DNA of 44,661 bases from a virus (Duplodnaviria > Heunggongvirae > Uroviricota > Caudoviricetes): the IMG/VR virus record IMGVR_UViG_2654587540_000005; one strand, written 5' to 3'. A program made the translations under genes and the position numbers. How positions within the stretch are numbered: position 1 is the first letter of the stretch; every line of letters starts with the position of its first letter. The notes under the pieces were generated by a model that was not told the DNA's origin, did no database searches, and saw nothing but the letters and a program-made list of their open reading frames with translations. Shown piece by piece: positions 29,913 through 30,173 of this stretch.

Positions 29913-30173
29913 ATGACACACATGATCTTTCGTCATGGCGACATGAAGAAGTGGAAAGGCGTTGGCTACGACTTTGAAATCGTGAAAGCCGAAGAGCTTC
30001 AGGAATATCTGGATGCTGGCTGGTTTTCACATCCTGATGACCTTTTGAAGGATGTTGCAGAGCCAGAGCCAGAGCCAGAGCCAGAGCCAGAGCCAGAGCC
30101 AGAAGAAAAACAGCGTAAAAAGCCTGGTCGAAAACCTAAGGCGGCAGCAGATGAACCTGACAACGAAGGGTGA
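29913..30173 (+). CDS. Small protein with an (EP)7 linker and basic C-terminus
   Basis: ATG at 29913 with a GGAGA RBS; 86 aa containing [14 protein letters not shown] followed by [11 protein letters not shown]. Overlaps the gp4 start. Confidence 0.5.
30060..30101. repeat. Perfect tandem hexanucleotide repeat (GAGCCA)x7
   Basis: Seven exact GAGCCA units read directly from the sequence, encoding (Glu-Pro)7 in the frame of the small ORF. Confidence 0.95.

Follow-up and report, generated by a model that had tools for sequence, protein, structure and literature searches.

An in-frame hexanucleotide microsatellite of variable length in a conserved orf69-family gene between the coat gene and gene 4 of a P22-type prophage

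Introduction

Why does a small gene lodged between the coat gene and gene 4 of a P22-type prophage carry a perfect hexanucleotide array, and is that array part of a genuine protein? The question arises in a 44,661-nt stretch of Caudoviricetes DNA, IMG/VR record IMGVR_UViG_2654587540_000005, referred to here in its entirety as the window. A preliminary description of this DNA had read the array as an alternating Glu-Pro linker followed by a basic tail, had likened the linker to the rigid rod of TonB, and had predicted that copy number might vary between isolates. Here we follow up these proposals by examining the locus, its product, and its relatives in phages, prophages, and protein clusters.

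Results

A perfect GAGCCA array between the coat gene and gp4

The array consists of seven GAGCCA units without a mismatch at positions 30060..30101 on the plus strand and encodes (Glu-Pro)7, residues 50-63 of the product. Tandem Repeats Finder delimited it at 30058-30103 (period 6, 7.7 copies, 100% match) with a score of 92, the highest in the window; the next best array scores 53. Matches to a three-unit GAGCCA probe were confined to the array, and none occurred in 100 dinucleotide-preserving shuffles. Beyond (EP)7, the same frame continues for 23 residues to the C-terminus.

Upstream of the array lies the P22-type major coat protein gene (28573..29868, plus strand; 431 aa; PF11651 P22_CoatProtein, E=2.8e-166), with its stop at 29868. 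The hairpin GGGAGC-TTCG-GCTCCC follows 8 nt on, at 29877-29892, and is succeeded by GTTTTTAT. A consensus scan marked this hairpin plus T-run (29877..29900, plus strand) as terminator-like, and annotations at the equivalent position give the "t coat" terminator for Sf6 and a stem-loop for P22. A GGAG Shine-Dalgarno-like motif (29903..29906, plus strand) then stands 6 nt before the ATG at 29913, which opens an 86-aa open reading frame (ORF) running to a stop that ends at 30173. The program-made ORF list opens this frame at an upstream GTG, at 29865, overlapping the coat gene; PGAP annotates the ATG start in a near-identical prophage, and the same ORF is called in related prophages.

Downstream, the gene for the gp4 head-tail adaptor occupies 30151..30651 on the plus strand. 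When this gene is opened at 30151, its P22_Tail-4 match (PF11650, E=4.3e-58) sets in at residue 2 of the product, and P22 gp4 (60% identity) aligns to the product from M1. These two alignments place the true start of gp4 at 30151, so that its first 23 nt overlap the end of the small gene. The ORF list stretches gp4 upstream to an ATG at 30052, reading MLQSQSQSQ... across the repeat, an extension that arises because the repeat contains no stop codon. The preliminary description had already attributed this extension to the other two frames of the repeat, which give SQ or AR runs, and the Pfam match and P22 gp4 alignment bear it out. Its account of the seven exact units, the EP frame, the basic tail, and an 86-aa ORF that follows the coat-gene terminator hairpin and overlaps the gp4 start was likewise confirmed, and every factual statement in it that could be checked stands. 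A frameshift fusion of Orf69 with gp4 was considered and ruled out: the locus lacks a slippery site, and in one orthologue 17 nt separate the small gene from gp4.

Further along the same gene cluster, the window encodes a homologue of the tail needle, gp26 (32070-32918, plus strand), that carries an Sf6-type knob (PF16532, E=3.4e-117). An Sf6-type needle knob beside a P22-type coat protein and gp4 is mosaicism in the virion gene cluster.

The array belongs to a genuine gene of the P22 orf69 family

The small late gene (29913..30173, plus strand) is a homologue of P22 orf69. Its product matches phrog_1175 at E=7.5e-37, with residues 1-84 aligned to profile positions 1-72 of 72, and P22 Orf69 matches the same profile at E=4.5e-31; compared pairwise, the two proteins share 35% identity (E=2e-9). 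The features that place the window protein in the P22 orf69 family are this full-length profile match, the position between coat and gp4, and the succession of N-terminal domain, acidic linker, and basic tail. Orthologues with 38% and 54% identity, drawn from a library of 1.84 billion protein representatives, likewise lie downstream of coat and upstream of gp4; one of them is the orthologue that does not overlap gp4. A second protein-database search, made with an alignment of the family, yielded for the most part close relatives already identified. Identity to the P22 counterpart is 73% for the coat protein (P22 gp5) and 60% for gp4 but only 35% for the small protein, indicating that the small gene evolves faster than its neighbors. 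The preliminary description was thus right that a short gene lies between coat and gp4; it did not recognize the homology to P22 orf69, and it was unaware that a longer form carrying a WDGH domain fills the same slot elsewhere.

Selection on the N-terminal 49 codons identifies the frame that is read. The first 147 nt were compared in 87 related sequences, which comprise 28 distinct haplotypes. Reading in the ORF frame gives 16 synonymous and 12 non-synonymous variants and a pN/pS of 0.18; the alternative frames yield 2.07 and 1.37. The proposal that the repeat is translated as Glu-Pro within a genuine small gene holds, since purifying selection acts in that frame only and the flanks of the repeat are conserved. 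At the level of sequence comparison, these data show that the orf69-family gene is real, conserved, and read in the EP frame.

The same data bear on whether the ORF could be a mere translated spacer, bringing ribosomes from the post-coat hairpin to the gp4 start, with a functionless peptide as its product. The ORF starts 13 nt past the T-run of the terminator, its last 23 nt overlap the beginning of gp4, and P22 and Sf6 show the same overlap, all of which would suit such coupling. However, the low pN/pS of the N-terminal domain, a confidently predicted fold common to the short and long forms, and the orthologue separated from gp4 by 17 nt make a functionless product very unlikely.

Pfam and NCBIfam contain no family for the window protein. 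The sole match, to Procyclin/PARP (PF05887), scores 18.3 bits against a cut-off of 100 and is due to EP low complexity alone. Searches of PHROG, Pfam, and NCBIfam matched it to no defence-related family, and no solved structure or curated-family relative of it was found in PDB, Pfam, and NCBIfam. The literature searched for P22 orf69 yielded nothing on the function of Orf69 or of the window protein, and nothing on this gene was found in the literature on hkbT/Sf6 gp6, on WDGH, or on hexanucleotide repeats in E. coli prophages.

A folded N-terminal domain, a disordered linker, and a basic tail

AlphaFold2, run with a 16-sequence alignment, modeled residues 1-48 confidently, with block-mean pLDDT of about 88-93 over residues 1-40. 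The predicted N-terminal domain (residues 1-49; 29913..30059, plus strand) comprises a beta-hairpin (2-14/17-25), a helix (26-34), and a short helix (41-48), and it has no match in the PDB; the short and long forms share this predicted fold. The EP run and all residues after it have pLDDT values of 50-56.

Although predicted to be disordered, the basic, Pro/Gly-rich tail (residues 66-76; 30108..30140, plus strand) is conserved in short and long forms. The C-terminal 23 residues are almost invariant among close relatives, and in distant relatives of either form the tail remains recognizable as K-K/R-x-G-R/P-K-P-K-A (KPRKGRKPKA in P22). Part of this conservation may come from the ribosome-binding site and start codon of the overlapping gp4, which sit within the tail-end codons. 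The tail resembles an AT-hook but does not qualify as one: the window protein has P-G-R-K-P without the RGRP core and has no Pfam AT-hook match, and RRGRPPK is present in one distant orthologue only (P0133).

The central 20 residues of the N-terminal domain resemble a module of GIY-YIG/HNH homing endonucleases. The hhalign probability of 96.6% covers 20 columns only, and the phmmer E values to the module (3.5e-7 to 9e-4) are boosted by the 4-6 repeated stretches in each of those proteins. The module, W-I-N-x-G ... EELQxYLDxGW, is resembled by window positions 29932-30029 (residues 7-39). It is repeated 4-6 times in the C-terminal halves of GIY-YIG/HNH homing endonucleases that also carry NUMOD3, and it has no Pfam model.

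Copy number varies from 1 to 33 units while the frame is kept

The predicted variation between isolates was borne out when related prophages were compared: copy number is far from invariant and spans 1-33 units across phages, prophages, and protein clusters. Among isolated phages, sequence gave 2 units in Bas106 and 8 in APC_JM3.2, and match length gave 5 in HZ41 and in Louie, 6 in Dewey, and 8 in IME10. The locus was found in 217 of 5,426 complete E. coli genomes. Sequences of phage and E. coli records contained perfect arrays of 2, 7, 8, 20, 24, 29, and 33 units, the four longest of them read directly from complete genomes of E. coli; for the remaining E. coli records among the matches listed, match length points mostly to 6-8 units, with a tail from 12 to 19. 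In IMG/VR, 77 loci of 80 could be scored and have 4-15 units, and protein clusters reach down to a single unit.

Four groups of loci illustrate how fast the array changes. Within each, the flanks show zero differences over 2,147 nt, yet the arrays hold 9/10/13, 11/14, 5/6, and 9/11 units, from which it follows that length changes much faster than base substitution. Some IMG/VR loci have arrays of 10-12 pure copies of the synonymous unit GAACCA, a pattern that fits local amplification of whichever unit seeds the array. Interrupting units code for D-P, E-Q, E-T, E-S, E-L, or K-P, so that a loose acidic/polar character is kept. All length differences are multiples of 6 nt, and the downstream frame is kept in the window and in 84 loci, a count that leaves out the IMG/VR locus L023, whose read is truncated. 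The array is thus a hypermutable simple-sequence repeat of the kind found in phase-variable contingency loci but shows no on/off switching; with a 6-nt unit that always changes by whole units, it cannot act as an on/off switch.

Differences in low-complexity DNA could in principle be artefacts of assembly, given that short-read assemblies can collapse repeats and that PGAP calls long alleles pseudogenes. This explanation has next to no probability here. Match lengths were equal within same-label assembly pairs (W/W and two labeled DH5alpha) and between two isolates of one chicken-faeces series, and the agreement of the same-label pairs makes assembly error unlikely; moreover, even 33 units amount to only 198 nt, and the long arrays come from complete genomes.

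Another possibility is that the repeat acts as DNA or RNA and that its coding is incidental: it could form an array of sites for a protein, serve as a signal in packaging or regulation, or fold as RNA. Long arrays are perfect in their nucleotides, beyond what the amino acids call for, but recent slippage itself yields perfect arrays. The array is missing from P22 and other orthologues and ranges from 1 to 33 copies, Rfam has no match at the repeat, and GAGCCA repeats cannot self-pair. Taken together, these observations make a nucleic acid role extremely improbable.

Several records at this locus deserve separate mention. At L004 (E. coli ECONIH6), a 29-unit allele, and at the long-form alleles L094 and L096, PGAP reports pseudogenes or fragments ("missing C-terminus") although the alleles are intact; translation of these gives uninterrupted ORFs. 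Two records labeled "DH5alpha" (CP026085 and CM135829, ~4.83 Mb) carry the prophage locus with 6 units. A P22-like prophage locus is not expected in a K-12 derivative, and the DH5alpha labels may be wrong. The MLVA locus CVN014 was considered as the same locus and rejected: it is scorable in ST131 as well as in the rest of the major sequence types examined and thus is not a prophage marker.

The EP run probably behaves as a tolerant spacer

An extended polyproline-II chain rises about 3.1 Å per residue, and at that rise 1 to 33 EP units correspond to roughly 0.6 to 20 nm. P22 Orf69 has no EP run, and plaque-forming phages have 2-8 units; arrays of 20-33 units were seen only in prophages. Since P22 manages without an EP run and plaque formers differ from 2 to 8 units, a rod of defined length is not supported. 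The earlier comparison with the rigid rod of TonB is a plausible analogy. It is apt in composition, a basic stretch rich in Lys and Pro coming after the EP run, but, given P22, the pLDDT of 50-56, and the range of 1-33 units, it does not extend to a defined length. Judged from the spread of lengths, array length looks nearly neutral, and on the predicted structure the EP run behaves as a tolerant spacer within a disordered linker that became slippery in this lineage.

We consider it probable that the array is an in-frame coding microsatellite in a real, conserved orf69-family late gene, serving as a near-neutral spacer that gains and loses whole units. The pattern suggests that the perfect hexamers most likely do so by slipped-strand mispairing during phage or host replication, and unequal recombination would leave the same pattern. 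One unit being two codons, the frame would stay unbroken, and only the length of an acidic, disordered or extended spacer would change between the folded N-terminal domain of ~48 residues and the basic tail, KKPGRKPK. To our knowledge, classical P22 genetics defined no essential gene between genes 5 and 4, and no such protein appears in the virion structures that have been published; on these grounds we infer a non-essential, non-virion accessory protein. Our best guess is that such a late-operon product might work as a two-ended tether, its N-terminal domain holding one partner and its basic tail binding nucleic acid or an acidic surface.

A long form with a WDGH domain occupies the same slot

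About a fifth of the E. coli matches cover only the ends of the query. In those prophages the slot holds a gene of ~200 codons that matches phrog_3769 (E=7e-99) and encodes, in order, a homologous N-terminal domain, a WDGH domain (PF25311, E=1.5e-39), a variable EP run, and the same basic tail. A representative lies at L095:650-1261 (E. coli CP191548), and others are at L094 and L096. This order also holds, with 0-7 EP units, in orthologues of the long form across the Enterobacterales (Escherichia, Pantoea, Cronobacter, Erwinia, Xenorhabdus, Hafnia, Serratia, and Klebsiella). With a homologous N-terminal domain and a shared EP run and tail, the window protein corresponds to the long form minus WDGH. 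No solved structure or curated family was found for the long form, and the literature searched describes no function for WDGH; in unrelated proteins, fusions of WDGH are seen with a Tad2-like Thoeris anti-defence domain and with a domain related to crAss001_48.

In L095 (1739-1888; E. coli strain 19451123), a truncated gp10 gene lies downstream of gp4, and an HNH endonuclease gene comes after it. This arrangement suggests a homing-endonuclease insertion in the head-completion genes.

The exchange of domains within the slot raises the question of whether length variation is adaptive, the array being tunable or diversifying (for tether reach or escape from host defence) and the slot gene serving as a counter-defence or accessory gene instead of an assembly factor. 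Such a role would account for a polymorphism that is extreme and fast, for the faster divergence of the small gene (35% identity, versus 73% for coat and 60% for gp4), and for the company that WDGH keeps elsewhere with the Tad2-like domain. Nevertheless, a 6-nt unit is unable to switch expression, orthologues without an EP run exist, and the window protein itself has no match among defence-related families. The link to Tad2 is two steps away, through a domain that the window protein lacks, and a gene that keeps its position and overlaps gp4 translationally resembles a core late gene, not a moron. On balance, we regard adaptive length variation as unlikely.

A broader synthesis would make the product a modular nucleic acid-binding late factor, with an N-terminal domain derived from the repeat module in the DNA-binding halves of GIY-YIG/HNH homing endonucleases, a tail acting as an AT-hook does, and an EP array selected as a tether of adjustable length that sets the spacing of its two binding ends. 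It would act either in packaging or head completion, as a P22-type equivalent of lambda gpFI, or in counter-defence, the latter option resting on the long form's WDGH domain and its fusions elsewhere to Tad2-like sponges. We find this combined scenario quite improbable and favor the near-neutral spacer in an accessory late protein.

Other features of the window

Two tyrosine integrase genes are present, both on the minus strand, one at the left end of the prophage (418-1677) and one at 42239-43453. The latter adjoins tRNA-Arg(CCT) (43579-43653) and an ORF at 43729-44661, at whose position a related prophage record annotates yfdC. No att direct repeats were found within the window. A sar antisense RNA (RF00262, 71.6 bits; 38830-38896, minus strand) overlaps the start of the antirepressor gene (Bro-N/P22_AR_C, 38832-39776), as in the immI region of P22. 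The Phage_rep_O gene (13191-14051) contains two adjoining iteron-like repeats of 19 nt, TGTCACCAAAAC(G/A)G(T/G)GACA, at 13589-13630; this pair is probably the replication origin.

Discussion

The well-studied assembly cluster of P22 contains, between coat and gene 4, a gene under purifying selection that is conserved throughout this group of phages. The gene in this slot is modular, built of an N-terminal domain, an optional WDGH domain, an EP run, and a basic tail, and in one E. coli lineage its linker became a hexanucleotide array of up to 33 perfect copies. Coding microsatellites that stay in frame within a disordered linker are a familiar type of feature, and the gene family is known but uncharacterized. 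What is new is the range of 1-33 copies, the change in copy number between otherwise identical prophages, and the modular relation to the WDGH long form. The array offers a natural series of spacer lengths for probing what the orf69-family protein does, and the locus is a fast-changing marker able to separate otherwise identical prophages. It also misleads automatic annotation, which labels intact long alleles as pseudogenes.

In composition the EP run recalls TonB, whose proline-rich spacer has (EP)n first and (KP)n after it; runs of this type should adopt an extended, polyproline-II-like conformation. The window protein likewise alternates Glu and Pro before a Lys/Pro-rich basic stretch. In contrast to TonB, it is cytoplasmic, without a TonB domain or membrane anchor, its basic part has no regular KP repeat, and its length is not conserved; with the sub-threshold low-complexity match as its only Pfam hit, it does not belong to the TonB family. 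In-frame coding VNTRs and simple-sequence contingency loci are known in bacteria and phages. The array resembles the latter as a perfect, short coding repeat whose length mutates far faster than point positions, and it differs from them in that its unit is a multiple of three, so that only protein length varies and phase variation does not occur.

By position, the gene has counterparts in other phages. Lambda gpFI is a small, non-virion accessory protein of DNA packaging with a flexible linker, encoded directly after the major capsid gene, and its likeness to the window gene is one of position only. Gene 6 of Sf6 and hkbT of HK620 (phrog_3251) are also small, follow "t coat," overlap the gp4 homologue, and end in a basic KRGRK; unlike the window protein, their products have no EP run and fall in a separate PHROG. 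Homology to Sf6 gp6/HkbT is accordingly unsupported (hhalign probability 0.5%).

P22 orf69 (NP_059631) shares with the window gene phrog_1175, the slot after the post-coat stem-loop, and the overlap with gene 4, and its product shares the N-terminal motif GW.HP..LL and the basic tail KGRKPKA. At 35% identity, Orf69 differs in having a short, non-repetitive acidic linker, PVEADDV, in place of the EP array. The long form of phrog_3769 has a homologous N-terminal domain, a variable (EP)n, a KKPGRKPK...DEPDNEG tail, and the same position between coat and gp4; it is set apart from the window protein by the WDGH domain of ~100 residues between the N-terminal domain and the EP run.
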